Positions 9,623 through 26,462 are shown, numbered from the stretch's first letter. The stretch: 64,000 nt of DNA from Candidatus Multivoradales bacterium (GCA_965248055.1 CBDFIJ010000004.1:1984001-2048000); one strand, 5' to 3'. Notes: generated from the sequence alone by a model not told the origin. Numbers and translations: made by a program.

Positions 9623-10983
9623 TGCTCCGAACCTTAGTGAGAGGGATTTTCTTGCTGGCGTTCGTGTCGTGTCGACCCCCTTTGTCGCCAGACCATATTA
9701 TTTTGGTGACGATTGACACGTTGCGAGCGGATCACCTAGGAAGTTACGGCTACCCCCGCAATGTCTCGCCGTTTCTTGACCAATTGGCGGCAGAGGGCGT
9801 CCGATTCAACAAAGCTGTTTCGTCCAGCTCGCATACGGCTCCATCTCATGCTTCACTTTTCACCTCGCAATACCCAGCAACTCATGGCGTGATTGCCAAC
9901 GGCACTCAGCTGAACGCAGAAATCCCCACTATTGCGTCGATGTTCCAATCAGCTGGCTTCCAAACAGCGGCAGTTATAGGTGCTCGCTTCTTGAGCCAGG
10001 TTACGCCAGGGTTTGAAGAAGTGCATCACAAGCGGCCAAAGCCGAGCGGCTATTGGCCAGCGGATCGTGTGGTCGACAAAGCAATCGTCTGGTTGACTGG
10101 TAGAGACAAGGAGAAGCCATTCTTTCTATGGGTTCATCTGTACGACGTTCATAGCTCACGTGGCGAACAAGGTGGTCCACCGTATGAGTACCTGTCGAAA
10201 TTAAAAAAGGAGTTCCAGCAAGATCCAATACCGATTCAGGCAGCGTGGAAACAGCATGGGCTTTCGGACGACGTAATTGGTAGTCCTCGGCAATTACATC
10301 ACTATGATGCACAGCTCGCGTATGTCGACACCGAGCTTGAGCGGCTCTATCGTTTTGTCGAGACCCACGAAAGTGATTCAGAGGTACTCTGGGCGATCAC
10401 TGCGGATCATGGTGAAGGGCTAGGAAATCATGGCTTTCTGGGCCACGGAAGGTACTTATATCAGGAACAACTCAGAGTGCCTTTGATTCTCCACGCACCG
10501 AAGTCTTGGGAAGCTGGGTTGATTGTTCCCGAGTTGGTACGACACGTCGACCTGATGCCAACTCTGGCCGAGCTGACGGGGATCGCGGTTGATCAGAAGA
10601 AGCTCGCGATCGAAGGTAGATCGCTACTTCCGCTACTAGACCCGAGCAACCCTGGGGTTGCGCCCGCTTATGCCTATTCGCAACGCCGCCCTCCAACCGA
10701 GGGGCGATTACAAGCCGGGTGGTCTCCGGGATTGATGATCAGCGCACAAAGTGATGACTATAAGTACATCTTGAGGACTGACGGCGACGATGAGTTCTAC
10801 GACTTGTCCAAAGATCCGATCGAATTGGAAAACATGATCGAAACCGATTTGGCAGAAAAACAACGCATGGCCGAGTGGTTGGCGCGCAAATATGAAGAGA
10901 TGAGTACGAACTCATTGGGTGACAGGGAGACGGGAGTTCAGGAGGAGTTCGTCGAAGAGCTCAGGGCTCTCGGGTATCTATAG
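9595..10983 (+). CDS. Sulfatase-like alkaline-phosphatase superfamily protein, probable lipoprotein
   Basis: IDTLRADHL, HTAPSHASLFT, TADHGE, C-terminal LRALGYL; signal ending FVSC. Confidence 0.85.
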   Translation: MRASNNFSVMLRTLVRGIFLLAFVSCRPPLSPDHIILVTIDTLRADHLGSYGYPRNVSPFLDQLAAEGVRFNKAVSSSSHTAPSHASLFTSQYPATHGVIANGTQLNAEIPTIASMFQSAGFQTAAVIGARFLSQVTPGFEEVHHKRPKPSGYWPADRVVDKAIVWLTGRDKEKPFFLWVHLYDVHSSRGEQGGPPYEYLSKLKKEFQQDPIPIQAAWKQHGLSDDVIGSPRQLHHYDAQLAYVDTELERLYRFVETHESDSEVLWAITADHGEGLGNHGFLGHGRYLYQEQLRVPLILHAPKSWEAGLIVPELVRHVDLMPTLAELTGIAVDQKKLAIEGRSLLPLLDPSNPGVAPAYAYSQRRPPTEGRLQAGWSPGLMISAQSDDYKYILRTDGDDEFYDLSKDPIELENMIETDLAEKQRMAEWLARKYEEMSTNSLGDRETGVQEEFVEELRALGYL

Positions 10984-12201
10984 TGGCCTTTCGATATCCG
11001 ACATCGTTTTCAAATCCGTAGCGGCAACAATTTGCTGAGCTGCTCGCTCAGGAGAAAAAAAACTCCTTAATAGCTTTCGACCGTTGCTCGCCAAAGAGTG
11101 ACGCAGGCCCTGATCTGCGATCATTTGTCGCGCTAGAGATAGAAGCTTGTGGTCGTCGCCGTTGACGCAAACTAACGCTGCAGCGTTTTTCTCTAGAATT
11201 CCATTGAGTTCGTTGCCGGGGTTCATCGCCGCGAGAATCGGTTTACCAAGCAACAGGTAGTCAAACATCTTTCCAGGAAAGTTGTGACCTTTCAAACGGG
11301 GGCTCAGGGACATCAAACCAACGTCGACTTCTGAAAGCAACCCTAGATAGGTTGCTTGATCGACAGCGGCGAGAAATTGGATGTTTCTGATTCCTCGTTC
11401 CCGCGCGGTCTGCTGGAGCACGTCAAGCTCACTACCAGAGCCGACGAACAAGAAACAAGCTCGTGGGTCGTCCTGGAGAGTTTCTGCCAGTCGAACGAAA
11501 CACATGGCGCCCTGCGCTACCCCGAGATTGCCGCCATAGAAGAAAACCACACGGCCTTCCAGGCCGAGCTTGCTCCGCATTTGAGTTTTGGAATTCTGCT
11601 GACCCCGCGAGCGTGCCCAGTTGTAGAGAACTTCGACCTGTACATCAACACTGTGCCCTCGCTGATCGAAATAACCCAAGTTTCCTCGTGACTCGACGCC
11701 AATGACATCGACCGCTCGATAGAGTCGATTCTCGTAGTGGGTAAAGAAACCGTGTGCCAATCCGCCATTTCGCATCAAGCCGGCTTCCACACACCATTGT
11801 GGGAAGATATCTCGTAAAATTAGGTAGCTGGGACAGTTCCATAGGGATTTCAATCGGGCGACCAGGCGACCAAAAAAAATTGTCGGTGCATAGCTGACGA
11901 TCAAGTCACATGGATTTTCGATCAAGAAATCCCTGGCAGCTCCCCAGATTGTGTAAGAGAGGCGCCACTCGTAATAAGCCCGCAGCGGGCGGGGAGTATT
12001 ACGAAATTGACCAGAACGAACCCGTACGACGGTAATTCCATCTTCCTCGGTGACCGTACGACGGCTAGTCAACGAGGCATCTGGGGCCAGCAGTACGATC
12101 TGGTGTCCTTGGTCGCGAAAGACGAGTGCTAGATCATGCATGATCCGGGCGCAGGACTGGATGTTCGGATAATAATTCTGAACCAGGAGGAAAATACGCA
12201 T
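10978..12201 (-). CDS. GT4 glycosyltransferase, WbuB/WbjE-like
   Basis: LRDIFPQW, YGGNLGVAQG, FPGKMFDYL..GKPIL motifs. Confidence 0.82.
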   Translation of the reverse strand: MRIFLLVQNYYPNIQSCARIMHDLALVFRDQGHQIVLLAPDASLTSRRTVTEEDGITVVRVRSGQFRNTPRPLRAYYEWRLSYTIWGAARDFLIENPCDLIVSYAPTIFFGRLVARLKSLWNCPSYLILRDIFPQWCVEAGLMRNGGLAHGFFTHYENRLYRAVDVIGVESRGNLGYFDQRGHSVDVQVEVLYNWARSRGQQNSKTQMRSKLGLEGRVVFFYGGNLGVAQGAMCFVRLAETLQDDPRACFLFVGSGSELDVLQQTARERGIRNIQFLAAVDQATYLGLLSEVDVGLMSLSPRLKGHNFPGKMFDYLLLGKPILAAMNPGNELNGILEKNAAALVCVNGDDHKLLSLARQMIADQGLRHSLASNGRKLLRSFFSPERAAQQIVAATDLKTMSDIERPL

Positions 12202-12221
12202 TCAACCAAAAACCAAATGGT

Positions 12222-13055
12222 TCAAGGCGTTGGGTAGTTGTATCGATCGACCCAACTTCGGTCTTTCTCGTACTGCAGGTGAACCAGAGCATCTCCTGCC
12301 AGGTGATCGAAGATCTCCGCTGCTTCGCGCGAAAAATGGTTCTTCCAGTCACCGACCACGCCCTTACGGATGTGCTGAGAAAGATCGGATTTCCCTGGTT
12401 TACGCCCGGTTTGGCGTTGCATTGACATCTTTTCAACGGTCGTCTCGATGCGCCACGGATCGGGTTCCTGGTCGAGGAGCCGGCCCAGTACCCGGCTCAA
12501 GGTGCCGGCACAGTCTTGGCGTAATTGCTCGTAGCTCAGATAGGCGATATCGGGCCGCCCTGGCTGTACCCAATCGATGACGTGGTCTCGCCAATGCAGT
12601 GGCGTTCCGCGGCCGGGATTTTCGAATTCGAACTCGATGAACCGCGGCAGGTGGGTAACCACATCTTGCGGGTCGTAGTTGCGGCCGAACAGGCGTTCGT
12701 AAGTGCGGTTCAAGTGGGCACTGGCGGGCCGTTGAGCGTAGCGAGCGACTCGAATTCTGTCGAAATAAAACGACGTCATAACATCACGGCCATCGCGGTA
12801 GATATAGAAAACCCTTTTGAGACGCGGCTGGTAACGCCAGTGATTTTGAATCACCGAAGAGAAAGTGATTGGCAGTACGGAATACCTGGGAAACGGCAGT
12901 ACCAGATAGTCGCTGACCATTTGAGCCAACCAAGTTCCACCTGACTTCGGATGCTCGGCGACGTAGTAGAAAGGAAAAGACTCGCCCCAGCGGGCGCCGA
13001 TCAACCGGGTTGATTCTTTGGCGAGTTTTTCGGCAATTCGCCTGGGATTGGGCAT
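12222..13055 (-). CDS. PAPS-dependent sulfotransferase (Sulfotransfer_1, cytosolic SULT-like)
   Basis: HPKSGGTW (5'PSB), RDGRDVMTS (3'PB), RKGVVGDWKNHF. Confidence 0.9.
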   Translation of the reverse strand: MPNPRRIAEKLAKESTRLIGARWGESFPFYYVAEHPKSGGTWLAQMVSDYLVLPFPRYSVLPITFSSVIQNHWRYQPRLKRVFYIYRDGRDVMTSFYFDRIRVARYAQRPASAHLNRTYERLFGRNYDPQDVVTHLPRFIEFEFENPGRGTPLHWRDHVIDWVQPGRPDIAYLSYEQLRQDCAGTLSRVLGRLLDQEPDPWRIETTVEKMSMQRQTGRKPGKSDLSQHIRKGVVGDWKNHFSREAAEIFDHLAGDALVHLQYEKDRSWVDRYNYPTP

Positions 13056-13111
13056 AGTTGATAGGGGTCTTTGGTAGTCAGTCCGAGTCGCCGAAATATA
13101 CTACCGTGGTA

Positions 13112-13987
13112 ATGGACCCGAACAATGTCGCAGAAGCTCTCACATCCTTACCTCAGCGCCCAATAGCGATCATTACCCACAAGCGCTCGGGTACTCACCT
13201 AACAATGGATGTCATGCGTCGGCAGTTCGAAGAATGTGACTCTTGGAAGTGGTGGGGGGAAAACCACAGCCGGCTTTATCTTTCCCTGCAGGCTCTATAC
13301 GACCCCAAATCGCTCACCCCGATAAGTGAAGAAAAGGCGATACGGGTACTGCAGCGGTGCCAGTGTCCTCTGGTCAAGACCCATGACAAGCCGTCTGACG
13401 TACCTCTGGGGCGGACAACCACCCGTGGCGCCCTCGGTGAACACTGGCTGCAGTGGCTCAATCATTCAGTCAGGAAGCTCTATGTTTACCGCGACGGTCG
13501 CGATGTAATGTGTTCGCTTCGGTTGTTGGCGACTAAGCGAGACCGCAGCGCGTGGAAGCCAATCTCCCAATTCATCCGCGAGGAAGTCGAAAACGGAATG
13601 TCCCGAGCTGCGTATTGGGCGTGGCACGTTGAGAGCGGTTTGAGTCAGCCGGACTTTGCCCCTCTCAAGTTCGAAAGCTTGGTTCGTGACACCCGGGCCA
13701 GCCTGGACTATTTGGCACAGCGCTTCAATCTGACAGCGCGACACCAAGATCCGTTGTTGCCCAAAAAAATCCACTCCGTATGGCAGTCTAGGTGGTCGCG
13801 ATTGCTTGAGCGAAGGCCACAGAGTAGTGCGATTCTCGGTCGTCCTAAAGAGATCAAACTAGACAAGTGGCAAGAGGTATTCAGCCCAGAAGATAGGGCG
13901 TTTTTCCATCGCGAAGCCGGGCAGGTTTTGCTTGACTTAGGCTACGAAGAATCTGATTCCTGGGTCGAGGGTAGTTCCCAGGAGTAG
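13112..13987 (+). CDS. PAPS-dependent sulfotransferase
   Basis: HKRSGTHL, VKTH, YRDGRDVMCS; start taken at MDPNN. Confidence 0.85.
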   Translation: MDPNNVAEALTSLPQRPIAIITHKRSGTHLTMDVMRRQFEECDSWKWWGENHSRLYLSLQALYDPKSLTPISEEKAIRVLQRCQCPLVKTHDKPSDVPLGRTTTRGALGEHWLQWLNHSVRKLYVYRDGRDVMCSLRLLATKRDRSAWKPISQFIREEVENGMSRAAYWAWHVESGLSQPDFAPLKFESLVRDTRASLDYLAQRFNLTARHQDPLLPKKIHSVWQSRWSRLLERRPQSSAILGRPKEIKLDKWQEVFSPEDRAFFHREAGQVLLDLGYEESDSWVEGSSQE

Positions 13988-14835
13988 CCCAGGCGCAGCA
14001 ATGGCGGCTCAAGGATTGGCCGTATCATTTCCAGGTTACGGTCGGTCAAAAGTTGACGCCAGACATTGGTACGAGTCGGGTCAGCGTCGTTGACCACGCT
14101 CTGTTTGAAATCCTCATCGGGAGACAGATCAGCGAAACGTTGCAGTTTGTCGGCCCATATTTGTGGTTGCGAAACTAAGTCTTGGTACTCGACCTCTAGC
14201 CACTGTTGTTGCGGAACCAATGGTCGAAAGTTGAGGACCGGTTCCAACGTATATCGCCACTGTTTGGCGAGAACGACGATCTTGGGGTCATGAGCCACCC
14301 AGCTTTTCCAGCCCTGAGGTCGTGGGCCCCAGTAGGCCATCTCGCGCCCCAAGAGCCGGTGTCCGAGAGTGTTCCAAGCTCGGGGGATGAACGAAGGCCA
14401 CTCCCAGAGAGGGGTCCCTAGAAGCCTCCGCAAGTACCACTCGCGATCAGGGGCTCTGGTCTTAGCGACGATATGAGTCGAACTCAACACTGCACGACCG
14501 TCTCGATGAATGTGAACAAATCGAGCGTCTGGAAAGATGGCAAAGATAAACGGTAACCGAAGACAATTGCTGGGTGTTTTTTCCACCAACTGATTCTTGC
14601 CGTGCTTTTCCAAGAACCGAGCAACTTGCCCTCTTATCCGCGCCTTGATCTGCGGGGTCGCGTCGGCCTCGGCTAGGCAATCATCTGGGCGGAAGTTGTT
14701 TCCCCTTGACCAAACGTGTCGAGGCTCCTCCCAGTAGGCGACTTCGGAATGTTGGCTCAGAGCCCTACCCAAGAAAGTAGTTCCTGAGCGATGAGTTCCG
14801 ATTACAAACAGCGGTGGTTTGGAAGCGGGGGCCAT
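13942..14835 (-). CDS. PAPS-dependent sulfotransferase (Sulfotransfer_3)
   Basis: GTHRSGTTFL, EKTPSN, HIHRDGRAVLSS. Confidence 0.9.
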   Translation of the reverse strand: MAPASKPPLFVIGTHRSGTTFLGRALSQHSEVAYWEEPRHVWSRGNNFRPDDCLAEADATPQIKARIRGQVARFLEKHGKNQLVEKTPSNCLRLPFIFAIFPDARFVHIHRDGRAVLSSTHIVAKTRAPDREWYLRRLLGTPLWEWPSFIPRAWNTLGHRLLGREMAYWGPRPQGWKSWVAHDPKIVVLAKQWRYTLEPVLNFRPLVPQQQWLEVEYQDLVSQPQIWADKLQRFADLSPDEDFKQSVVNDADPTRTNVWRQLLTDRNLEMIRPILEPPLLRLGYSWELPSTQESDSS

Positions 14836-14956
14836 CGTAGGACGTTGTTAGGAGCAGGAGTCCGAGGAGAAGAGAATTGAGTACTAAGAAGTCTTTTGAT
14901 CTGCGGTAGGTTGTGACCGCAGAGCATCCTAGCAGCCCCTCCATCTTCTCTTTCAG

Positions 14957-15231
14957 ATGAAGATTGTCCATCATTTTATCTACCTGAACGTGGCAGGAGG
15001 GGCGTACTATTCGCACGACGGCGACCGGCGAAAAAGCGCAGGCAAGGGAGTGGCTTCCGAAGGGTACGGTCGAAGTGGTTCCAGTAGCGGTGGACCTATC
15101 GTCTTATCGGCACCGGCATATTCGAGCCAAGCGCAGGGTGGTACCGGTCAGAGCGTGCGGTTCTAGAGTGGCTCGATCCCGACAATATGGCTCAATACGA
15201 GCAGATGTATCGGTGTGCAATGAACGCATAA
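14957..15231 (+). pseudogene. Collapsed GT4 glycosyltransferase remnant (three fragments in three frames)
   Basis: MKIVHHFIYLNVAGG / IRTTATGEKAQAREWLPKGTVEVVPVAVDLSSY / ERAVLEWLDPDNMAQYEQMY resemble, in order, the N-terminus, middle and C-terminus of the intact GT4 at 34479-35621. Confidence 0.72.
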
Positions 15232-15264
15232 GCAGGGTAGTAGTGCTGCGCCCAGAAAGGATTC

Positions 15265-16878
15265 TCATCGGACCAATTTTGTTGCTGCGCTACGCAGAAG
15301 CTGGACAATTCGTTGTCGCTCGGTGGGTTCTGACAACACGCTTAGGGCTAGCAGGAAGAACAGTGAAACCGAGATGGCCAGTAGCACGATCAAGCGTAGG
15401 ACGGTTAGATCGACGAAGTACGGTCGAACCAGCCACATCGCAATCAAGAACAAAAAGCCGGCTAAGAGTGGCCTTGGCAGAGACTCCCGAAGAACAACAC
15501 GAATCGAGAGATCCGTGACGTTCTTGAGCGCGCGCAGAACGACCCCAGGAGAAAAAAGCACATGCGAGACAAAGATAGCGAGGGTTGCTAGGACCGGGTT
15601 GCCAAACCAAGCTATCGAACCGATCGCCAAACCCAAGCAAAGTAGCGTAGCCCACTTCGAAAACCAGGAGTACGATCGAACTTCGCCCATACCGTACAAA
15701 ATACGTTCGACACCGAAGAAACCGGCACGAAGCGTCCGCACGGCAAGAAGAATCAAGACCATCAAGGTTGCTAGGTTGAGCGCTTCAGCTACCGAAATCC
15801 CAGCGATTGTCAGGCTAGGGTCATTGGCGAAACGAGAGCCAACCCAGAGCTCCAAAAGGGGGTGAGCGTAGACCCCAAGGAGGATCGCGGTGGGGATGCT
15901 GACTGCGAATTGATATCGAATGCTGCGGGTGATCAAAGCTTTGACCACGGTCATCTTCCCTTCTTTTTGCAGGTGAGCGGTCATCGGTGCAATTCCGCGC
16001 AAAATACCGTCAGCGACCATGCGCGCGAAGCCGGAGAACTGGACCACAACTTGCCAGATCGAATTGTAAGTCAGCCCGAAGAAGAGGTTGATTAGTACAG
16101 CAACGAACTGAGTATTCAAGTTGAGTAGCAACGAGATATGAGAGGTGTGCCAGATCGTGTGGCGGACAGCTTCGTACTCGGCTCTGTCGAAAGCTGCCAT
16201 GTCTAGTTTGAGTCCGGGGATACGTCGCTTAGCCCACCAAATACCGAGTCCCACATCCGCAAGCTGCAGGGTCGCCCGGGAAACAGCGAAACCTACGAGT
16301 TGGCGTGAAAGAGGCTCTTCGCGAAACAGCCAGCCAAACACGATGACTGCGGAGAGCGCATAGGTAAGCCGTGCGCCAACAGTGAGAAGGTTGTCGAGCC
16401 CAACCTGCTGCGCAGCGAACAAAGACTGCAAGAAAGGTGCACTGAGTATTCGGACAACTGCGTGAAACCCCTCCGACAGAACCAGAATGGCGAGCACCCA
16501 CTTTAGCTCTGGTTGATTGTCTGGAGTATTGAAAACTCCCGCTGCAGCCAAGCTAGCCAGAAGTGCGGTTAACCCCACCAAACCGATTGCGGTTTGGCGG
16601 CAAAGGTAGAACGTTGAAGCTATATTGATACGCAGTGCACCAGGGTCTTTTGACGCGATAGCACCAGCTAGCTCTCTAACTAAGCCGATGCGGATCGTCC
16701 TCTCAAGAGCCCGGGAAGGACTGGTGCTGGAGACCGACAAGGCGATCATGCCAAAACCAATCGTGCCCACTGCTCCCAAGATGTACCAAGTTGAGAAGAT
16801 CCCGATTGCGAACCCGGTTCCCAGCCTCAGATAGGTTGTTACTGCATTGCTAAGAAGCCGGGTCGATAGGCGCATCAA
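15265..16878 (-). CDS. wzx: Polysaccharide flippase (Wzx/MOP superfamily)
   Basis: 12-14 TM segments, RLLSNAVTTY N-terminus, PLLELWVG motif, glycan-locus context. Confidence 0.78.
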   Translation of the reverse strand: MMRLSTRLLSNAVTTYLRLGTGFAIGIFSTWYILGAVGTIGFGMIALSVSSTSPSRALERTIRIGLVRELAGAIASKDPGALRINIASTFYLCRQTAIGLVGLTALLASLAAAGVFNTPDNQPELKWVLAILVLSEGFHAVVRILSAPFLQSLFAAQQVGLDNLLTVGARLTYALSAVIVFGWLFREEPLSRQLVGFAVSRATLQLADVGLGIWWAKRRIPGLKLDMAAFDRAEYEAVRHTIWHTSHISLLLNLNTQFVAVLINLFFGLTYNSIWQVVVQFSGFARMVADGILRGIAPMTAHLQKEGKMTVVKALITRSIRYQFAVSIPTAILLGVYAHPLLELWVGSRFANDPSLTIAGISVAEALNLATLMVLILLAVRTLRAGFFGVERILYGMGEVRSYSWFSKWATLLCLGLAIGSIAWFGNPVLATLAIFVSHVLFSPGVVLRALKNVTDLSIRVVLRESLPRPLLAGFLFLIAMWLVRPYFVDLTVLRLIVLLAISVSLFFLLALSVLSEPTERQRIVQLLRSAATKLVR

Positions 16879-16914
16879 CAGCTATCATAAACGTCGAGCC
16901 TGGCTTTCTTGGAT

Positions 16915-17844
16915 ATGAGCGCTGATCAAAGAGTACCCGCAACGCAGCCCTCGTCGCGATTCCCCGATTTCTTGATCGTGGGAGCGATGAAGAGCGGAAC
17001 CACTTCGCTCTTTTTCGATCTGCTAACTCACCCAGGGATTTTCTTGCCAGACGACAAAGAACCCCACAGCTTGGCGGATGATGAAGTCCTAAGCCCGCAA
17101 GGCAGAGAAAAATACACGCAGTTATTTGCTTCCGCAAATGCCGCTCAAATTTGCGGAGAAGCTTCGACCGGATATACCAAACGACCCGATATTCAGAATG
17201 TTCCGGAACGGGCACAGGAAATCTGTGGCCCAAGTTTGAAGGTGATTTATCAAGTGAGGGAACCGGTCGCGCGCTTGATTAGTCATCACTACCATGAGTT
17301 TACTGCGGGCAAAGTGGGCCGAAATATCAACCAAGTGGTAAGAGAGCACCCAGAGTTCATCAACTACAGTCGCTACGCGCATCAGATCCATCCTTGGTTG
17401 CAAACGTTCGGATCAGAGCAAGTGAAAGTAGTTCGATTCGAAGACTATGTCGCAGATCGGAGCGGTGCCGTGAGTGAACTAGTAGCTTTTCTCGGAGTGG
17501 ACAGTGGTGAACTGGACTCGAACTTACTGGCGGAGGTCTATAATCGCAGTGAGGGCAAGCCAGCTCCGCGAGGTCGAATGTGGAGAGTCACGCGGAGGTC
17601 CTGGTATCGACGTTGGGTTCGCCCGCTGCTTTCGACTAAGATGCGACGTCGGCTAACTGGCTATTTACTGCCTGCGGCGCCGGATCGTCCTGAACCACCC
17701 TCGCATAATACGGTCGCATGGATCTTGGACCAGTTGGCAGAAGACAATAGATTGTTGCAACAGATAATGGGACTCTCGAGTCCGGTTTGGGATGATGATG
17801 CGGTTTTGCGAGCGTATGAAACGAACGAAAAACCAGATGCCTAG
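16915..17844 (+). CDS. Sulfotransferase (heparan-sulfate O/N-sulfotransferase-like motifs)
   Basis: PDFLIVGAMKSGTTSL, KEPH, GEASTGY, REPVARLISHY. Confidence 0.9.
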   Translation: MSADQRVPATQPSSRFPDFLIVGAMKSGTTSLFFDLLTHPGIFLPDDKEPHSLADDEVLSPQGREKYTQLFASANAAQICGEASTGYTKRPDIQNVPERAQEICGPSLKVIYQVREPVARLISHHYHEFTAGKVGRNINQVVREHPEFINYSRYAHQIHPWLQTFGSEQVKVVRFEDYVADRSGAVSELVAFLGVDSGELDSNLLAEVYNRSEGKPAPRGRMWRVTRRSWYRRWVRPLLSTKMRRRLTGYLLPAAPDRPEPPSHNTVAWILDQLAEDNRLLQQIMGLSSPVWDDDAVLRAYETNEKPDA

Positions 17845-17879
17845 TCAACCACTAGAGTTTGGTCAAAAGAGGAGAATCC

Positions 17880-19307
17880 ATGCCATCTGACGAGATTGGC
17901 CTAGCCGAGTTGACTTACCTAGCACGTCAACGCTGGAAGTTGATCACTGGGTGTGCAGCAATCTTTGGGCTGCTCACCTGGGGGTGGTTTCAGCTCGTGG
18001 TTGACCCCAAATTCTCTGGGACGGCGAGCGTTATTGTTCGGCCTTCTCTCGATGAATCGACAGCGGCGATGAACACAGTGGATGTCTATCGGACCATTCT
18101 GGAGAGCGAGGCGGTGGTTCAAGAAACGACTACCCGGCTGCAAGACGCAGGAATGCTTAGGAAGAACCAACAGATTCGCCAAGGGCGTGATCTACAGGCG
18201 AAAGTTGAGAAAAGCTCCAGTCGCTCCAAAGAAGCCGTACCGATTTTGCAGCTCTCCGGTCTGGCAGATAGTCCAGAGTTAGCGGCGGCACTAGCCAATA
18301 CTTGGGCACAGGTTCTGACAGAGGAGAGTCGTCGAATTGTTCCAGCGGCAGCTTCTGAAGCAGGAGAAATACTCGCTATACAGATTCCCTCAACCCGCGA
18401 AGATCTTGAAAAAGTAGAACTTGACCGGACCCAAACCATGAATCGATTGGAGCTTGAAGAGGGGAGAGTTGCCGCCGAATGGGACCGTCGTATTTCAGCA
18501 GCAAAGAGCAGTGCCGCTCGTGGCATCGCTAGGTATCAGACTGAGACAAGGTTTCTTTTGGAGCAAGCAGCCGGTCTGTCAGGAGGGAAAGAGCACGCGC
18601 CAGTAACCGGAGAACAATCGAGCGGAATGCTCTCGGGAGACCGTATTCGAGCGAAACTACTGGAGGTTGTTTCGGTACGCGTACAACAGGCTCAAACTCC
18701 CAGGATATTGAGGTTGGAGAAATCCGCCACGGACGAAACGATGGCAGATTTCATCGCTACAGAAACCGACGTTCCAAGTTTTGATCAGACGGTTACAACA
18801 GAAGAAGTCAACCTTTTGTACGATCAACTAACCCTCCGCGCTTTGGACTTAGAGAATGCGTTGAAGCGCATGGCGTCTGACCAACTCGAATTGGTTTCAA
18901 CGGTTCTATCCGCGCTGCAAAAGATTCAACTTGAACGGGCCGCAGGAATGAACGCGCTGGTCGATAGTAGAGACCTAGAACTGAAGTTGTTGAATCGAAA
19001 TGGGTCCCGAGCCTTGGGCGAACTTGAACGCCACCGAGTTGACCAGCAGGCTGAATTTGCTCGTCAGCATGGACAGCTTACAGATCTATCCGCTCGCCTT
19101 ACGGCGCGGTATAACGCCGTTTCGGTTGGTCGACTCTTAGGCGAGGTTGAAGTTGTCCACCTAGCCGCTCCAGCAGTCGTCGACCGCAGGGCCGAGCCAA
19201 TTCAATTGCCACTGAAGATCGCGCTTGCGGTTTTCCTAGGAGCCGTGCTTGGTCTTATGGTTGCGTTGTTTCGTTCGGTTGGTCAACTAGAAACAACAGA
19301 ATCGTAA
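17880..19307 (+). CDS. Polysaccharide co-polymerase / chain-length determinant (Wzz/GumC-like)
   Basis: DEIGLAEL N-terminus, N- and C-terminal TM helices flanking a long coiled coil, Pro-rich segment before TM2. Confidence 0.8.
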   Translation: MPSDEIGLAELTYLARQRWKLITGCAAIFGLLTWGWFQLVVDPKFSGTASVIVRPSLDESTAAMNTVDVYRTILESEAVVQETTTRLQDAGMLRKNQQIRQGRDLQAKVEKSSSRSKEAVPILQLSGLADSPELAAALANTWAQVLTEESRRIVPAAASEAGEILAIQIPSTREDLEKVELDRTQTMNRLELEEGRVAAEWDRRISAAKSSAARGIARYQTETRFLLEQAAGLSGGKEHAPVTGEQSSGMLSGDRIRAKLLEVVSVRVQQAQTPRILRLEKSATDETMADFIATETDVPSFDQTVTTEEVNLLYDQLTLRALDLENALKRMASDQLELVSTVLSALQKIQLERAAGMNALVDSRDLELKLLNRNGSRALGELERHRVDQQAEFARQHGQLTDLSARLTARYNAVSVGRLLGEVEVVHLAAPAVVDRRAEPIQLPLKIALAVFLGAVLGLMVALFRSVGQLETTES

Positions 19308-19724
19308 GGTTGGGGAGAGCGAGGAAGGCCTGGTTTCTTCAAGCCCAGACTGGCTGAACACACTAGCGTCGTGTTCGCTTCAATACAGCGGGGTATTTCT
19401 CCTCCGCAGCTTCAAAAGTAGGGCGCTGAGTGTTTTGCCGGAAGAAACCGTTGACTGAGAATTTGCGCGCCTTTGTTTGAGGCATTCCGATGGGAGGATT
19501 GAGATCGTGGCGTCCATCGTGATGGCTGACGGAATAAAGCTATTTCCATCTGCTTATGGAGTTGGGTAAATGCTCATCGTTTTGATTTCTCGTTAGTCTG
19601 TCGAAGCTCATCTAGATCACCAGATATGGTGGGTTGGAGTACTAGTTCTACTGCGCTGTCCCTATGCTAGGGTCCAGCTTAGTTACCACGGATGGGGTTG
19701 CCTGAAGCTCTTGTTAATTGAATA

Positions 19725-20969
19725 ATGCATGCAAAGAACAATTTGCTCACTGCCCCTCACAGTGACAAACCTCGGCATCGATTCAGCAAACAGCTTCTGC
19801 TCGCCATTGTAGCTACAGCCATCGGCGTGCTCGCTGCTGAGCTAGTTCTGCACCGCGCAGGGGTTAGAGATCGACGCGTACAGTCGAGATACCGGACCCC
19901 TCACCCAGTCTTTGGGTGGGCACCAGAAAGCGGTGCTTCGTACGTCAACCCTCTCCCTGAGGAGCAGGTTCATGTTGCCTACAACAGTAAAGGCTGGCGT
20001 GACCTAGAACGAGATATCGAGAAACCAGAAGGCACGTTTCGCATCGCGGTCCTTGGTGACTCTTTCATGGAGGGGTACTCTGTTAACTTCGAGGAAAGTT
20101 TCCACCGCCTTCTAGAGGACGCCCTTGACGGAAGATCCCGAGATGTCGAGGTGCTTAACTTCGGTGTCGGGGGTTACGGCACGTTGCAGGAGTATCTTGT
20201 CTATCGGGAGGCGGTTAGCAAGTACTCACCAGATCTTGTGCTTTTGGGTTTCTGTATGGGGAACGATCTACGCAACAATAGCCGCGAACTTGAGTCAAAG
20301 TTGGGTGCGGGAAAGTTCAAGACAGTAGCGCGCCCGTTTCTAGAAGCCTCGACCGATGCATGGAGAGTTGCTGAGACGGACAACGAAGCGGCTCAGCGTC
20401 GCTATCAAAGAGCACTAAAGGAGCGTCGCAGCATTTTGAGTCGTATATACCAGTCTTCGTCTGTCTTGCAGCTTCTCCGAGGTGCAGCAGCTAATCTATT
20501 GCGAACTCGGATTGGAGAAACTAGTGCTGACGATATGGATTTGGCTATGACCGGTGTGCACTATTGTGAAGAACCACCTGAGATTGCAGACGCTTGGGAC
20601 ACGACGAGCAGGATCCTTGTCCGTCTCCGCGATGAGGTAGCGGCCGACGGGGCAGATTTGGTCGTTTTTTCGGTTCCTTCGCGCCATGAGGTGAATCGCA
20701 GCTACATGCACCGTGTCCGTAGCGATAGCACTAACCCTGACCGCCTCTGCTTAGACGCGGCACCGGGGTTCGATCGACTTGATTCGGTGCTCGAAGAGCT
20801 TGGAATTGTAGGGGTTGAGCTGTTGGATGACTTCCGACGAGAGGCGGCTGAGGAGGAGCTTTTTCGTCGCAGCGATCAGCATTGGAACAGCCGTGCCCAT
20901 GAGACTGCAGTCAGCGCAGTGAAAGCAAGCCTGGATCAATGGGGTTTAGTGCCAAGGCAGGCTAACTAA
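19725..20969 (+). CDS. Membrane-anchored SGNH/GDSL protein (AlgX/AlgJ-like transferase or esterase)
   Basis: N-terminal TM; blocks GDSF, NFGVGGYGT, GND, DQHWN. Confidence 0.85.
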   Translation: MHAKNNLLTAPHSDKPRHRFSKQLLLAIVATAIGVLAAELVLHRAGVRDRRVQSRYRTPHPVFGWAPESGASYVNPLPEEQVHVAYNSKGWRDLERDIEKPEGTFRIAVLGDSFMEGYSVNFEESFHRLLEDALDGRSRDVEVLNFGVGGYGTLQEYLVYREAVSKYSPDLVLLGFCMGNDLRNNSRELESKLGAGKFKTVARPFLEASTDAWRVAETDNEAAQRRYQRALKERRSILSRIYQSSSVLQLLRGAAANLLRTRIGETSADDMDLAMTGVHYCEEPPEIADAWDTTSRILVRLRDEVAADGADLVVFSVPSRHEVNRSYMHRVRSDSTNPDRLCLDAAPGFDRLDSVLEELGIVGVELLDDFRREAAEEELFRRSDQHWNSRAHETAVSAVKASLDQWGLVPRQAN

Positions 20970-21360
20970 TACACTAAGTAAGACTGGATTGACCATCAAG
21001 CGTACCGGAAGATATGCCTGGGAACCTTTCGGTTGCGATGCCTTGGCCGTCGGCGCTGAGGTAGCTTACACATATGAGACAGAACGGCTATCCCTCCGAA
21101 ACTCCGGTATCAGATAGACGCCACTCAGAGAATTCACGTCACCGTTGAACCTTGCTAGCTTCAATGTCTATGTTTTGTTGCGTCATCGACGCAACCCCTG
21201 TTCGCTTTGCGAACCAGATGTCAGGTTCAGACTTGAGTCTCCGCTTGCTTCATAAGAAGCATAATCCTATGGCTGCGCGTCATCGCGATTCCCACTGTAA
21301 CTTAGGATTGGGTCTCCTTTTGGTCAGAGATGGGGGTAGCTTGCGTGGCGCACACTCGGC

Positions 21361-21558
21361 CTAGAAGAGAGTGTAGATGAACGGGGCAAGACCACTGCCG
21401 CCAGCGACTAACAGGGCGCTGACGAGCAACAGTACAACGATTATCGGTGTCATCCACCAGCGCTTGTTCTCCATCAGGAATCCAGCGAACTCAGCGATGA
21501 AAGACTTGCGCTTCTGGGTAGCTGCACGTTCGAATTCGCGAGAGTTTGGTGAAGACAT
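21361..21558 (-). CDS. DUF5989 (SxtK-like) small single-pass membrane protein
   Basis: EF..FL.ENKRWW.TPI, one TM helix, C-terminal APFIYTLF. Confidence 0.85.
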   Translation of the reverse strand: MSSPNSREFERAATQKRKSFIAEFAGFLMENKRWWMTPIIVVLLLVSALLVAGGSGLAPFIYTLF

Positions 21559-21592
21559 CGACTAGATTTCCTTTCGGCGTGTCTTAAGGCTA

Positions 21593-22003
21593 TCAGAACT
21601 GTCGGAAGTAGCTAGCAGCCGACCGCTTAGTTTGCCGCGAGGCCCAATAGGTGTTTGCCTCTGGTTCCAAACCTCGATGGAGCGAATCGCGACCGAAAAC
21701 CCTAAATATGAGCCCGATGGGAGTGACTATTAGATAGTAAGCGAAGGCCAAAGTTAGCGTGCCTACTACCATACCGATGGGGTACGCGATTAGAGTCAAG
21801 GCAATAAAAAGTGGCTTCAGAACGGGTGGAGTGAACCAGCCAACGAAAGCAACCATTGGACCCGTCACCCAGAGTACGGATGAGATCACGTTCATTCCCG
21901 TCTTGGACCAAAGGACCGCCCCCAAGACCAAACTGGCAACAAGAAAAGCGCTGCCAAATTGACGGAGTTGACGATTGGTGGGGTGCCAGTTGATATCGAT
22001 CAT
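21593..22003 (-). CDS. SxtJ family membrane protein
   Basis: RQLRQFG, TPIGLIFRVFGRD.L, TYW, C-terminal YFRQF; directly downstream of the carbamoyltransferase. Confidence 0.85.
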   Translation of the reverse strand: MIDINWHPTNRQLRQFGSAFLVASLVLGAVLWSKTGMNVISSVLWVTGPMVAFVGWFTPPVLKPLFIALTLIAYPIGMVVGTLTLAFAYYLIVTPIGLIFRVFGRDSLHRGLEPEANTYWASRQTKRSAASYFRQF

Positions 22004-22012
22004 CCAGTATTC

Positions 22013-23851
22013 CTAGTCGAGGTCAAAGCTTTCGATGTACTCGCGCGTTTCCCCTTTTGTGAGCAGTTGAGGCTGCTCCTCCTTGAGCATCACAAACGAC
22101 TCAAGTACCAAGACATCCATGTTGGTTGCCATGAAGCAACGGTAGGCGTCTTCAGGGGTACAAACGATTGGTTCACCTCGGATGTTGAACGAAGTATTAA
22201 TAGCCACAGGGCAACCGGTAATCTCGTAAAATCGCTCTAAAAGCGGCCGGAATGGACCACTGCGTTCGGCGTCAACCGTCTGGACTCGTGCTGAGTAATC
22301 GACATGGGTGATAGCTGGAATCTCCGATCGCGACACTTTGAGCTTATCGAGCCCTTGCGCATCCACAGCTTCACTATCGAGTTGCACTCGCTTTTCATCA
22401 CGGACATCTGCTACTAGCAGCATATACGGGCTCTCTTGCCCAGCTTCGAACTCAAAGAATTCATGATTGTGTTCTGCGAGTACGATGGGTGCAAAGGGGC
22501 GAAATGATTCCCGAAACTTGATCTTGACGTTCATGGTCAACTGCATGGCTCGGCTTCGGGCATCGCCGACGATCGAGCGCGCACCAAGTGCGCGCGGCCC
22601 GAACTCCATTCGGCCTGCGAAGTAACCGACTACCTTCTCGCTAGCCATTAACTGCGCCACGCGATCGTAGAGTGCCTCACCGTTGAACTGGTGGTAAACA
22701 GCGCCGACCGAGTCCAGGTGCTCGCGAATTTGGTCTACGGAGAAACGAGGTCCTAAGAGCGAACCATGTTGGCCGTCAGGGCTGGACGACGAACGTTTGT
22801 TGTCAAGGAGCTGATACCAAACGAAGAGTGCAGCCCCTAGTGCGCCGCCAGCGTCACCAGCGGCAGGTTGGATCCAAATTGAGTCGAACGGGCTTTCCCG
22901 CAGCAGGCGACCGTTGGCTACGCAGTTCAACGCTACGCCACCAGCAAGGACCAAGTTAGTTTGCCCTGTTTTTTGGTGGACGTACTGCGCCACCCGCATC
23001 ATGATTTCTTCAGTCACCGCCTGGATTGAAGCAGCAAGGTCCATTTCGCGTTGAGTTAGCTCGCCTTCAGGCTGCCTTGGCGGACCGCCAAAGAGCTGAT
23101 GGAACCTCCTCGAGGTCATGGTTAACCCCTGGCAGTAATTGAAGTACGACATGTCCATGCGGAACGAGCCGTCTTCTTTTAGGTCCAACAAGTGCTTGAG
23201 GATTAGGTCTTTGTACCGTGGCTCACCGTAAGGTGCGAGACCCATTAACTTGTACTCGCCACTGTTGACGCGAAAACCTGTGTAGTACGTAAACGCTGAG
23301 TACAAGAGTCCTAGTGAATGCGGGAACCGCAGTTCATGTGTGAGTTCGATTTGGTTACCTTGGCCTGAACCAAAGCTCGCCGTAGCCCATTCGCCAACCC
23401 CGTCCATAGTCAGGATCGCAGCTTCTTCGAAAGGTGACGGGAAAAAAGCGCTGGCGGCGTGCGATTCATGGTGTTCGGTGAAGACGTAGCGGCCGTCGAA
23501 GCGTCTGTCGAGACCGCGGTCGATCTGCCGCGGCAGCCACAGCTTTTCCTTGAGCCAGAGCGGCATAGCCTTACGAAAGGAACGGAAACCTACCGGTGAG
23601 TAGGCTACGTACGTTTCGAGCAAACGCTCAAACTTAAGTAGAGGCTTGTCGTAGAAAGCAACGTGGCCGAGGTTTTCGGGCTCAATGCCAGCTTCGGAGA
23701 GACAGTAATCAATGGCATTTCGCGGAAAGCTGTGGTCGTGTTTGTTACGAGTGAAACGCTCTTCTTGAGCTGCGGCTACAATTTCTCCATCCACCACCAG
23801 AGCGGCGGCAGAATCATGATAGAAGGCCGATATACCTAGGATGGAGGTCAT
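22013..23851 (-). CDS. O-carbamoyltransferase (NodU/CmcH/TobZ family, SxtI-like)
   Basis: ILGISAFYHDSAA, QEERF, EHHESHAASAF, DGVGE, EYKLMGLAPYG, GGVALN, MEFGPRALG, KFRESFRPFAP, NTSFN. Confidence 0.95.
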   Translation of the reverse strand: MTSILGISAFYHDSAAALVVDGEIVAAAQEERFTRNKHDHSFPRNAIDYCLSEAGIEPENLGHVAFYDKPLLKFERLLETYVAYSPVGFRSFRKAMPLWLKEKLWLPRQIDRGLDRRFDGRYVFTEHHESHAASAFFPSPFEEAAILTMDGVGEWATASFGSGQGNQIELTHELRFPHSLGLLYSAFTYYTGFRVNSGEYKLMGLAPYGEPRYKDLILKHLLDLKEDGSFRMDMSYFNYCQGLTMTSRRFHQLFGGPPRQPEGELTQREMDLAASIQAVTEEIMMRVAQYVHQKTGQTNLVLAGGVALNCVANGRLLRESPFDSIWIQPAAGDAGGALGAALFVWYQLLDNKRSSSSPDGQHGSLLGPRFSVDQIREHLDSVGAVYHQFNGEALYDRVAQLMASEKVVGYFAGRMEFGPRALGARSIVGDARSRAMQLTMNVKIKFRESFRPFAPIVLAEHNHEFFEFEAGQESPYMLLVADVRDEKRVQLDSEAVDAQGLDKLKVSRSEIPAITHVDYSARVQTVDAERSGPFRPLLERFYEITGCPVAINTSFNIRGEPIVCTPEDAYRCFMATNMDVLVLESFVMLKEEQPQLLTKGETREYIESFDLD

Positions 23852-24419
23852 TGTTTGTAAGGGCAATTTGGAGCAGCAACGCCTTGAGCCTGCGCCCGCG
23901 CAACGAACGTATTGTTTGGTTTGGTCTCCTTGATGAAGCGAGATTGCGATATGACGAACCCCGATGTCGATTCAGGCGAATTCTACCTCAGTTCCCCGAT
24001 TTCGATATCTGCACCGTTTGCATAAGTTTCTTGATTTGAGGATGCGTTGTTTTCTATCGGGTCAGCAAGCGATTGTAAGAAGCTGTTACTCCCCGCGGAA
24101 CAAGATGGAGCAAGAGGTCAATTCGTAAACAAGCGGTTTCCAAATTGGTGACGCGCCGCTGTCGTACAGGCACAGACCTCCTTGCTGACCCACCACGTTA
24201 GGGCTACCCAAGTGGCGAGGACATTTCCTGGGCTAATAACCCCTTTTGACATGGATGCTCCCCTCGACGCTTCCGTTGAAAGATTCAAGAAGGATGCACT
24301 TTGTAAGCTGCGTGCATAACCTCGCGGCGCTTTCCTGCATTTCCAGCTCTCGGAACCGGTACAAAAAGGGACCAGGGATTGTTTCCCTGGCCCTCATTGC
24401 TAGTCGAACTTGCCAAAAA

Positions 24420-25082
24420 CTATTGGTCGCTGAGTTTGAGCTCCAACTGCTCAAGGCGCTGGGTCAAGGCGTCGATTTGTTGGTCTCTATCTTGGACCAT
24501 TTGATACAGCCCTTGTACTGCTGCGATGGTGACGCCGTTGGTGTCGAGAAGAGAAATTCGCTTGTTGTCAGCACCGGTCCCAAACGCGGAGTGAAAATCT
24601 TCTGCCATCGGACCAATGTGGCGAATCCCTGATTGATCGTTGATGAAATTCCACTCGGTAATCGGTAGCCCAAGAACTTTGTCGAGGACCTCTCTTTGAT
24701 TCAGAGGAAGGAAATTTTCCTTGAGACTCTTAGATGAGGTGGGCGTGAAATCCGTGGCTTTGATCGTGCCGCCCACAATCATGGTGCTTGCTGTTCCCCC
24801 AGTGGTGAGCGTGAACTCAGTCAGACCCGTGCCGATTCGACTAATGAGGAAGTTGCCAGCGTTGTTCGATTTGAAGTTCCAGGTGGCGCCATCTGACTCA
24901 AAAAGAAAGGAGGCGGCGCCACCAGTTTTCTTCACGTGAAGCGGACTGGTTGGGTTGTCGGTACCAATACCGACATTGTCGTTCTTGACAAAGAGTACCC
25001 CTTGAGCGGATGCGGCGACCGGCATCAAAGCCAGGGTCAAGATGGCTAACAAGGCTATGGTGATTTTTGGTGTCTGTTTCAT
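24420..25082 (-). CDS. Secreted protein with C-terminal peptidase S74 intramolecular chaperone domain
   Basis: Sec signal (ASA|Q); GIGTDNP motif; TSSKSLKEN, HIGPMAEDF..AFG and terminal coiled coil. Confidence 0.8.
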   Translation of the reverse strand: MKQTPKITIALLAILTLALMPVAASAQGVLFVKNDNVGIGTDNPTSPLHVKKTGGAASFLFESDGATWNFKSNNAGNFLISRIGTGLTEFTLTTGGTASTMIVGGTIKATDFTPTSSKSLKENFLPLNQREVLDKVLGLPITEWNFINDQSGIRHIGPMAEDFHSAFGTGADNKRISLLDTNGVTIAAVQGLYQMVQDRDQQIDALTQRLEQLELKLSDQ

Positions 25083-25103
25083 TCGATGCCTCCTCTGGGC
25101 GAG

Positions 25104-25850
25104 TTATGTTTTTGTCCTTGAACGGACTTCTTTTTCCGGAATGGCTCCATTATCTTTCACGGAAGTAGGAGCCTTCCTCCCGTTGTTTTTTCTACTATTT
25201 TGTTCGTGGGCCAGTTCAATTCTAAAGTCCGCATTGGCCGCAATCGAAAAACCATCTCCAAGCACGACCGAATCCCCAGCTCGAAAGGTGACGTCACCAC
25301 CACTTTCAACCGTGACGCCAGTCGCGGTCAAACCGCCTTCACTTTCGATGAGATGAGTTCCGTTGAACTGATTGCCGACAAGAGCTCGCGAGGCGAGTGT
25401 ATCTGGTGAAATCATTGGGCTTCGTGTGACCCAAGTTAGGGTAACCGCGAGCAGAAGGACTGCCGCGAGGGCTGCACGGTAAAAGTAAGTACGATTCAGC
25501 AGTCGAGGCTGAGAGGTCGAAAATGTTGCTTCGAAGGCACCCCTGGTGACTTCAAGTTGATCGCGGCAGCTTTCACAGTTCGTACAGTGGTTTTCAATGG
25601 AGCTCGCATCTTCAGTCGAAAGGGAGCTTGGATACATCGCAAAGTGCGCTATCCGATCGCTCGAAGGATGCTCTTCACTGAGAACCTCGGCAATGAATTG
25701 ATAGGTGTGAGACCAGTCTTGACACTCGGTGCAGCTCTCTACGTGGGTGTTCAGCAGTAAAGAGTCTCGAGCTGGCGATCCACCACCCCAGGCTTGTCGA
25801 GTCATGATCGCGACGGCTTCCTGATGATCGATTGCGGTTTTCAAAGACAT
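25104..25850 (-). CDS. Zinc-finger anti-sigma factor with TM helix and extracytoplasmic beta-rich domain
   Basis: Two HxxxCxxC motifs (HVESCTEC, HCTNCESC), one TM, VTFRAGDSVVLGDGFS domain; directly follows the ECF sigma. Confidence 0.75.
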   Translation of the reverse strand: MSLKTAIDHQEAVAIMTRQAWGGGSPARDSLLLNTHVESCTECQDWSHTYQFIAEVLSEEHPSSDRIAHFAMYPSSLSTEDASSIENHCTNCESCRDQLEVTRGAFEATFSTSQPRLLNRTYFYRAALAAVLLLAVTLTWVTRSPMISPDTLASRALVGNQFNGTHLIESEGGLTATGVTVESGGDVTFRAGDSVVLGDGFSIAANADFRIELAHEQNSRKNNGRKAPTSVKDNGAIPEKEVRSRTKT

Positions 25851-26462
25851 CTAGGTTCTACTCTCGTTGCGGGGCACAATGTGTAAATCGTTGCCGCGAA
25901 GTTTTCTCGCAAGGATTTCTTGCGCTCGCCCAACGCAGCGATGCATCTGCACCCGAAGCGCTCCTGGACTCTTGCCCAGCAGTGTTTCCAGGTCACGATA
26001 TGGCTTGTTCATGCCTAGGTGCAGATAGATCAAATCTCGGCATGGCCTATCCAGTTTTGCCAGGGTTGATTGCAGTAAATCTTCACGTTCTTGCTGAAGC
26101 AGAGATGCCATTGGACTGGGTGTGCTTGAGGGCAGTTCGAAATCGAGTTGGTCGATGTTTTTTTTTGTTCGCAGCCAATCGATACACCTGCGACCAGCAA
26201 CAACGGCGGCGAACCCCATGAAATTCCTCTGGGAATCGAAACTTGAACGGTTAACTGCTTGCCAGAGTTGCGTCATGACGTCTTGAACCAGATCTCTCCG
26301 TTCTTCGGCTGGAATGCGGTAACCGCGAAACCCGACAATCTTTTCCACCTGAGCTCGGACTTCTTGCACGGCGTCTGGAGATCCAGCTTGAAACTCTTTA
26401 GCGACATTGCGTTGTACGTCATCCTTCAACTGCGTGATCGGTCTTTGAACATCTCTCGTCAT
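25851..26462 (-). CDS. ECF-family RNA polymerase sigma-70 factor
   Basis: DLVQDV, RRCIDWLR (region 2) and region 4 HTH (YRDLETLLGKSPGALRVQMHRC). Confidence 0.9.
   Translation of the reverse strand: MTRDVQRPITQLKDDVQRNVAKEFQAGSPDAVQEVRAQVEKIVGFRGYRIPAEERRDLVQDVMTQLWQAVNRSSFDSQRNFMGFAAVVAGRRCIDWLRTKKNIDQLDFELPSSTPSPMASLLQQEREDLLQSTLAKLDRPCRDLIYLHLGMNKPYRDLETLLGKSPGALRVQMHRCVGRAQEILARKLRGNDLHIVPRNESRT

Follow-up and report, generated by a model that had tools for sequence, protein, structure and literature searches.

A candidate tyrosine-shuttle relay without an MBOAT protein, built from a carbamoyltransferase, SxtJ and DUF5989 proteins and a coupled SGNH subfamily

A 64,000-nt window of the genome of a Candidatus Multivoradales bacterium (GCA_965248055.1 CBDFIJ010000004.1:1984001-2048000) contains four adjacent genes at positions 19,725-23,851, which form the region analysed here. 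The window means that whole stretch of DNA throughout, and positions are counted from its first letter. Three of the genes encode a carbamoyltransferase (CT), a small SxtJ-like membrane protein and a DUF5989 microprotein, and the fourth encodes an SGNH protein. A sequence-only reading of the window had proposed that these genes form a relay, in which a carbamoyl group passes from the cytoplasmic enzyme, via SxtJ and a tyrosine of the microprotein, to the serine of the SGNH protein and then onto an exported glycan. The four open reading frames (ORFs) lie where that reading placed them, and Pfam places them in these families, SxtJ scoring marginally under its cut-off; NCBIfam contributes no specific assignment. 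The CT-SxtJ-DUF5989 trio and the SGNH gene are convergent, with a gap of 391 bp between them. The features are as follows.

19725..20969, + strand: SGNH protein, 414 amino acids (aa), membrane-anchored, with Pfam families PF16822, PF13472 and PF00657; proposed periplasmic transferase
20055..20063 (codons), + strand: SGNH block I, G111-D112-S113, with the catalytic Ser, from a 56-sequence alignment
20874..20882 (codons), + strand: SGNH block V, D384-Q385-H386, with the catalytic His and W387 next to it, from the alignment and within the AlgJ/AlgX-aligned region
21361..21558, - strand: DUF5989 (SxtK-type) microprotein, 65 aa, PF19451 at 3e-19
21364..21381 (codons), - strand: C-terminal hexapeptide F60-I-Y62-T-L-F65, of the FxYxxF pattern; Tyr62 is the proposed carrier
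21593..22003, - strand: SxtJ-like polytopic membrane protein, 136 aa, PF19588 at 23.0 bits; proposed adaptor or conduit between CT and DUF5989
22013..23851, - strand: NodU/CmcH carbamoyltransferase (CT), PF02543 and PF16861; proposed cytoplasmic loader

The CT carries both domains of its family, matching PF02543 (the N-terminal Kae1-like domain) at 354.8 bits and 7.9e-106, and PF16861 (the C-terminal YrdC-like domain) at 223.9 bits and 1.2e-66. It is not a NodU equivalog, as its match to the NCBIfam NodU model (5e-41) reaches 141 bits against an equivalog cut-off of 1000. The frame 22013-23866(-), of 617 aa, stays open as far as a TTG at 23866; comparison with homologues by eye favours the ATG at 23851 as the start. 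The motifs HHESH and GPRALGARS are visible in the translation. Neither a signal peptide nor a transmembrane (TM) segment was apparent by eye, in line with the earlier description of a CT lacking a signal peptide.

The association of CT, SxtJ and DUF5989 extends well beyond this genome. When species-representative genomes were scanned with the DUF5989 alignment, at least 488 relatives were confirmed, and 80 loci from many phyla were kept; together with a second copy in the present genome these make a set of 81, in which several of the loci without a CT or SxtJ end at contig edges. CT adjoins DUF5989 in 72 of the 81 loci, and SxtJ is found in 76 by an iterated hidden Markov model (HMM). This recurrent gene order marks CT, SxtJ and DUF5989 as a conserved operon. 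In one locus (L054), CT and SxtJ are encoded by a single ORF, an arrangement that makes the SxtJ N-terminus cytoplasmic. A single protein (P0241) joins SxtJ to DUF5989, and was the sole fusion found by a search for longer homologues. Such fusions support a physical association of the products. The other co-oriented immediate neighbours of the trio, 51 proteins in all, are mixed housekeeping genes, whose most frequent family is Rhomboid, with three members. The families listed for these 51 neighbours include no MBOAT and no recurrent acyltransferase family.

The second trio of this genome lies at L003 7723-10251 (G000:C4:1709722-1712250). A frame change close to a conserved LAPYG segment breaks its CT into two ORFs, which points to either a pseudogene or a sequencing error.

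The DUF5989 ORF matches PF19451 at 69.3 bits (E 3e-19; profile positions 2-49 of 49), exceeding the gathering cut-off of 27. It consists of a basic N-terminal part, an NKRWW motif, one TM helix, a GGSG linker and an APFIYTLF tail. The size, the basic N-terminus, the single TM segment and the position of the FIYTLF codons had all been read correctly from the sequence. A homologue search found 223 relatives, and tail counts were made on the 120 listed. FIYTLF forms the C-terminal end of 117 of these 120, the remaining three ending in FIYAIF, LIYTLF and FIYPFF, while all 120 keep the Tyr at -4 and the Phe at -1. The Tyr at -4 is likewise present in 82/82 DUF5989 ORFs of the locus set, across phyla. 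In a 31-sequence alignment, the invariant positions are W34, W35, P38, P59, I61, Y62 and F65. The 15 residues ahead of the WW motif hold a mean of 2.8 Lys/Arg (K/R), and the approximately 10 residues past the TM helix hold zero charged residues. Because the N-terminal flank is rich in K/R and the tail is uncharged, the protein is predicted to have a tail-anchored layout, with its N-terminus inside and its C-terminus outside.

This tail resembles a motif that has been characterised in acyl transfer. FXYXXF is described as an acyl shuttle motif, whose Tyr delivers D-Ala in the case of DltX, and acetyl in that of PatA, to the serine of a partner SGNH protein (PMC12148441). The C-terminus of NgPatA is FIYANF, and other MBOAT-SGNH pathways are stated in the same source to lack a DltX-like microprotein (PMC12148441). 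The genome under study encodes its own canonical MBOAT (477 aa), which ends in NPFIYFIF and is directly followed by an AlgJ-like SGNH gene. Across a phylum sample described below, an ORF of at least 200 aa ending in F[IV]Y..F was present in 20/20 of the MBOAT regions fetched, mostly as PFIYFQF or PFIYFIF. The DUF5989 HMM also aligns to the last ~25 residues of 5/21 MBOATs at 10 bits or more, against 0/21 reversed decoys. Given the endings of these 20 regions and of the genome's own MBOAT, the DUF5989 tail carries, at the level of sequence, the same motif as the MBOAT shuttle tails of these genomes, and at the same place in the protein.

The pair formed by the MBOAT and the AlgJ-like protein lies at L088 1033-3589 (G000:C4, ~1.213 Mb), and in the latter protein DSHW precedes GDS. 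The genome also encodes another, weakly MBOAT-like protein (L089, 500 aa), which has no tail motif.

The SGNH protein matches PF16822 (ALGX) at 3.7e-11 over residues 291-404, and PF13472 (GDSL_2) at 1.8e-9. Its subfamily numbers at least 505 homologues (E<=1e-5), all of them unnamed. As the sequence-only reading had described, it is membrane-anchored and carries a GDS...DxH pair, here G111-D112-S113 and D384-Q-H386, behind an N-terminal helix (residues 16-44). Blocks I (GDS), II (G), III (GxND) and V (DxH), which define the superfamily, are all present. G111, S113 and H386 are invariant in 56/56 aligned homologues, and D112 (52/56), G147 (51/56), N180 (53/56) and D181 (55/56) nearly so. The Trp after the catalytic His, W387, is found in 42/56, E39, where the TM helix ends, in 52/56, and Cys281 and Cys342 in 39/56 each. 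N-termini across the family have 2.9 K/R and 0.35 Asp/Glu (D/E) in the N-terminal flank, with 2.45 and 1.75, respectively, in the C-terminal flank, and so look like signal anchors.

The AlphaFold2 (AF2) model of the SGNH protein, with a predicted local distance difference test (pLDDT) score of 93.8, was compared with known structures, and its profile with PDB sequences. The N-terminal half matches classical SGNH esterases at 2e-13, and the C-terminal half (288-411) matches AlgJ at 1.4e-11 and AlgX at 1e-9. The order of motifs is classical, with GDS before DxH. Because only the C-terminal half matches, and the motif order is classical, the protein is not a member of the AlgJ/AlgX family, and at best works like those proteins. 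The best solved match of the model in Foldseek is CgnD (PDB 8a2n; E 1.4e-9, TM-scores 0.48/0.64), followed by TesA-type esterases. A complex prediction for SxtJ, DUF5989 and the SGNH protein scored 0.25 against a mark of 0.32, which counts neither for nor against an interaction.

Members of this SGNH subfamily are coupled to the trio by proximity, by co-occurrence and by fusion. They lie within 10 kb of DUF5989 in 27/81 loci, within 1.5 kb in 24 and within 300 bp in 22, and the SGNH gene is located inside the operon in some loci (L023, L033, L056, L067 and L081). The phylum sample comprised 301 genomes that were at least 90% complete, with SGNH called at E<=1e-30. DUF5989 was detected in 118 of these genomes and the SGNH subfamily in 77: 72 have both, 46 DUF5989 only, five SGNH only and 178 neither. 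In a replicate of 201 Planctomycetota genomes (the phylum of G301, Aquisphaera insulae), DUF5989 occurs in 99; here 67 genomes have both, 32 DUF5989 only, two SGNH only and 100 neither. The SGNH subfamily is consequently almost confined to genomes with DUF5989, at 72/77 in the phylum sample and 67/69 in Planctomycetota. As a control, MBOAT was also scored in the phylum sample, where it likewise occurs in 118 genomes; the odds ratio for DUF5989 and MBOAT is 2.5, against 56 for DUF5989 and SGNH. Three genomes are flagged as unpublished, one among the 72 double-positives (G145) and two among the MBOAT-positives (G023 and G048), and their removal shifts the counts by one or two. SGNH matches number up to seven per genome and DUF5989 matches one to five, usually one or two.

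MBOAT matches (E<=1e-10) are found in 62/118 DUF5989 genomes and are absent from the other 56, and from 28 of the 72 double-positive genomes. The earlier suggestion of an analogue that is free of MBOAT fits these genomes.

Fusions provide a further link. Many Planctomycetota DUF5989 matches close long reading frames. Five fusion proteins were examined, of 517-1135 aa, and each combines PF13472, PF16822 and PF19451 and ends in APFIYTLF. The gene order SxtJ, CT, SGNH::DUF5989 was found in 10/10 Planctomycetota loci fetched. In three fusions examined for topology, three hydrophobic segments and a basic loop (RRGHWY), followed by the DUF5989 helix, stand between the SGNH domain and the tail. These make four crossings, and from this even number the SGNH domain and the Tyr tail are predicted to share one side of the membrane. 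The charge bias of the SGNH N-termini and the DUF5989 flanks suggests that they face the periplasm.

Taken as gene order, co-occurrence and domain architecture, the four-part system and the coupling of tail and SGNH protein are well supported. The possibility that the SGNH gene is only a part of the neighbouring glycan locus was considered, and was rejected in view of the co-occurrence and the fusions. With regard to the sequence-only reading, its interpretation is partly supported. Each of its points that computation could have overturned came out in its favour: the tail Tyr is conserved, the tail is predicted to be on the same side as the SGNH domain in the fusions and, by charge bias, extracytoplasmic, SGNH co-occurs with DUF5989 in two phyla, in neighbourhoods and in fusions, and many DUF5989 genomes have no MBOAT match.

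Two side observations concern variants of the DUF5989 module. One locus (L116 273-1376 and 4700-5986; G458:C29) has two tandem genes ending in the module, with the tail SPFIYTLF. These genes probably encode four-helix membrane proteins of ~130 aa without an SGNH domain, their long Arg-rich upstream frames looking spurious, and the proteins resemble the membrane part of SGNH::DUF5989 fusions alone. Extra small DUF5989-like ORFs also occur directly after fusion genes (L120 8370-8534, and also in L121, L123 and L126), for example one of 54 aa ending in SPFIYNIF.

The remaining component, SxtJ, scores 23.0 bits against PF19588, marginally below the gathering cut-off of 24.4. It occupies the conserved slot between CT and DUF5989, and the second genomic copy, which is 49% identical to it, itself reaches 37 bits. 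Its AF2 model (pLDDT 92) has helices at residues 10-34 and 38-57, and one 44-residue helix at 59-102. The last 30 residues of SxtJ proteins hold 6.4 K/R against 3.5 D/E, and the C-terminal tail is probably cytoplasmic because it is basic. The protein does end in SYFRQF, as previously noted. The accompanying hint that this end might act as a second shuttle motif finds no support, since 0/78 SxtJ proteins end in F.Y..F; a Tyr at -5 is present in 55/78. The long helix carries two PIG motifs 22 residues apart. In Bacteroidota-type SxtJ, the first half of this helix is charged and amphipathic, and the protein ends in EKPW rather than RYFRQF.

We consider it somewhat probable that the four gene products act together as a group-transfer relay of the tyrosine-shuttle type, with no need for an MBOAT or AT3 protein. 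Enzymes of the NodU/CmcH/TobZ family are ATP-dependent, and what is known of TobZ and NodU suggests the formation of carbamoyl-adenylate. In the proposed cycle, the cytoplasmic CT would make carbamoyl-adenylate and then carbamoylate Tyr62 of DUF5989. SxtJ would dock CT at the membrane and open a path for the DUF5989 tail to the loading site. The tail, GGSG-LAPFIYTLF, is flexible and uncharged, and its 13 residues would reach about 40 Å if extended; it might cross by dipping through a groove in SxtJ to CT. The carbamoyl-Tyr, which would be a good donor because it is an aryl carbamate, would then swing to Ser113 of the SGNH domain, and this domain would place the carbamoyl on an envelope polymer, at one of its hydroxyls. 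The acceptor polymer in this window would probably be the product of the adjacent sulfated-glycan locus, although this is a local hint only.

A more far-reaching version of the relay can be put forward as a possibility, about which we are doubtful. Here, CT and SxtJ together would constitute a third membrane loader beside MBOAT and AT3, charging the Tyr tail with carbamoyl across the inner membrane and serving several SGNH proteins (up to the seven matches seen in a genome) that O-carbamoylate envelope polymers. By extension, proteins of the SxtJ/SxtK/SxtL type in natural-product clusters would also act as a carbamoyl relay, in place of the current picture of a decarbamoylase accompanied by two proteins without a known role.

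A number of observations weigh against the tyrosine-shuttle relay. The sides do not match: CT, which needs ATP, would be cytoplasmic, and the predicted position of the Tyr is outside. We infer the carbamoyl cargo only from the operon and from the activity of the NodU/CmcH/TobZ family. A single crossing by the 44-residue helix of SxtJ would put its basic C-terminal tail outside, contrary to the charge rule, and the SxtJ model found 0 matches in a Foldseek search of the PDB at E<=0.001. When the DUF5989 profile was compared with PDB sequences at E<=10, no DltX was retrieved, the presence of DltX in that set being unverified, and the hits were chance ones, such as the NPxxY region of a G-protein-coupled receptor. 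The nearest solved folds to the SGNH protein, CgnD and TesA, are hydrolases, not transferases, and SxtL is a predicted decarbamoylase in the saxitoxin literature (PMC2679770, PMC3037375).

The genomic coupling also has its gaps. There is no member of the SGNH subfamily within 10 kb in 54/81 loci, and the second trio of the present genome has no SGNH gene nearby, its neighbours being MscS-like, ArsR and DUF4407 genes. At E<=1e-30, the SGNH partner is missing from 46/118 and 32/99 DUF5989 genomes and is thus not obligatory; moreover, kinship among the genomes inflates the Fisher values for co-occurrence, and fused Planctomycetota genes score for both features in the replicate. Glycan genes are not usual neighbours of the trio. 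The exported-glycan acceptor that had been suggested therefore does not generalise, given the mixed housekeeping character of the 51 co-oriented neighbours.

Of the alternatives, the one with most weight would make the SGNH protein an eraser, and we think it rather unlikely. On the cytoplasmic side, CT would carbamoylate its substrate, either a sugar or a precursor linked to lipid; SxtJ and DUF5989 would do no more than tether or regulate CT at the membrane, and the SGNH protein would later remove carbamoyl or acetyl, as predicted for SxtL. No passage across the membrane is needed here, an eraser would likewise co-occur with its writer, and hydrolases as the best Foldseek matches of the SGNH model are what it leads one to expect. 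A tethering role, however, leaves the invariant extracytoplasmic PFIYTLF, identical to the MBOAT shuttle tails, unaccounted for, and the same applies to the fusion of SGNH to the Tyr-tail module in 10/10 of the Planctomycetota operons fetched. The homology of the SGNH C-terminal half to the transferases AlgJ and AlgX, and the up to seven SGNH matches that genomes carry for one to five DUF5989 matches, also argue against it.

Conservation and fusion demonstrate coupling rather than catalysis, and the Tyr tail could in principle be a binding or assembly element without covalent chemistry, plugging the active-site groove of the SGNH protein, or a partner, so that a membrane complex is assembled or gated. 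This is improbable in our judgement: the same hexapeptide forms acyl-Tyr in Dlt and PatAB, the two tested systems in the account cited (PMC12148441), and the invariance here centres on the Tyr and the free C-terminus. We give slightly less credence again to the idea that DUF5989 shuttles another group, for example acetyl, which is loaded by another enzyme, with CT only a co-regulated neighbour. The FxYxxF tails known so far do carry acyl groups (PMC12148441), and more than half of the DUF5989 genomes in the phylum sample (62/118) have an MBOAT. Yet CT is adjacent in 72/81 loci, CT-SxtJ and SxtJ-DUF5989 fusions exist, the other 56 genomes have no MBOAT match, and the 51 neighbours contain no recurrent acyltransferase family, the top family having three members.

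If the tyrosine-shuttle relay is the right account, it shares several components with known pathways. DltB-DltX-DltD, PatA/PatB and AlgI/AlgJ/AlgX have in common with it a membrane helix followed by an extracytoplasmic C-terminal F-x-Y-x-x-F, which is free-standing here as in DltX. Another shared component is an SGNH partner that is anchored in the membrane and has Ser and His; in the present case, its C-terminal half is homologous to AlgJ/AlgX. In contrast to those systems, there is no MBOAT, the partners are a soluble ATP-dependent CT and the small SxtJ, and the presumed cargo is carbamoyl rather than acyl. The SGNH protein of the module, with GDS before DxH, also differs from the AlgJ-like protein of the same genome, in which DSHW precedes GDS. 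The AT3-SGNH fusions of the OatA type likewise join a membrane module with a catalytic Tyr to an SGNH domain (PMC12148441), and can be compared with SGNH::DUF5989. However, the domain order in SGNH::DUF5989 is reversed, there is no AT3 domain by Pfam, and the loader is separate in the form of CT and SxtJ.

The closest likeness in gene content is the sxtI-sxtJ-sxtK-sxtL block of cyanobacterial saxitoxin clusters, which, compared by description, is the same gene set (PMC2679770). This block encodes a carbamoyltransferase, SxtJ (PF19588), SxtK of ~54 aa and SxtL, a GDSL protein of ~426 aa, whose 1281-bp gene is labelled a GDSL lipase (PMC2679770). SxtJ and SxtK are listed as unknown in that literature (PMC2679770). 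In Lyngbya, sxtI is truncated, and both sxtL and carbamoylated products are absent (PMC3037375). Genes like sxtJ, sxtK and sxtL are clustered once more in the suomilide cluster (PMC10157211). Unlike the genes in these small-molecule pathways, the module described here stands alone or beside glycan genes. The best structural match, CgnD, is an SGNH-type hydrolase of crocagin biosynthesis, and its cluster also encodes a carbamoyltransferase, CgnI (PMC10070186). CgnD differs in being soluble, with ~300 residues, and is reported to be a slow leader peptidase (PMC10070186); its activity is described as very slow, and it was not labelled by phenylmethylsulfonyl fluoride (PMC10070186). Its sequence similarity to the SGNH protein is weak, at 3.9e-6 over residues 68-155.

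In the literature searched, no paper ties DUF5989 or SxtJ/SxtK proteins to a tyrosine shuttle. The association of sxtI with sxtJ, sxtK and the adjacent GDSL gene sxtL is already in print. The relay would pair the known principle of a tyrosine shuttle and SGNH partner with a loader, and probably also a cargo, that are new to it.

Upstream of the SGNH gene, positions 3666-19307 of the window (3.6-19.3 kb) hold a glycan locus. By Pfam, this includes a WecA-like GT4, RmlD-like and CapD-like proteins, a UDP-GlcNAc 2-epimerase, a GT1, a sulfatase and a weak Wzz match. The four genes had been placed at the edge of a Wzx/Wzy locus; the glycan locus is indeed there, and its Wzx and Wzy are unconfirmed, as Pfam gives no family for the two candidate polytopic proteins (8120-9622 and 15265-16878). 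The locus is unusually rich in sulfur chemistry, with five sulfotransferase-domain proteins (12222-13055, 13058-13987, 13942-14835, 16909-17844 and one weak match) and one sulfatase (9595-10983). On the other side of the trio, the region 24420-26462 includes a secreted protein of 220 aa with a Peptidase_S74 (endosialidase chaperone) domain by Pfam. The adjoining ORFs at 25104-25850 and 25851-26462 resemble, by eye, an anti-sigma factor and an extracytoplasmic function (ECF) sigma factor. A scan of 19200-24400 for promoters and terminators gave counts that were not above those of shuffled sequence.

Until now, descriptions of a tyrosine shuttle have been limited to MBOAT or AT3 acyltransferases. 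The present analysis links DUF5989, SxtJ and a large, unnamed SGNH subfamily into one system based on such a shuttle, and DUF5989 and SxtJ are common families that lack an assigned function. If the cargo is carbamoyl, the system would pose the puzzle of how a small polar group from a soluble ATP-dependent enzyme reaches a periplasmic Tyr. It would equally offer bacteria a route for carbamoylating polymers outside the cytoplasm, and would suggest testable roles for SxtJ, SxtK and SxtL.

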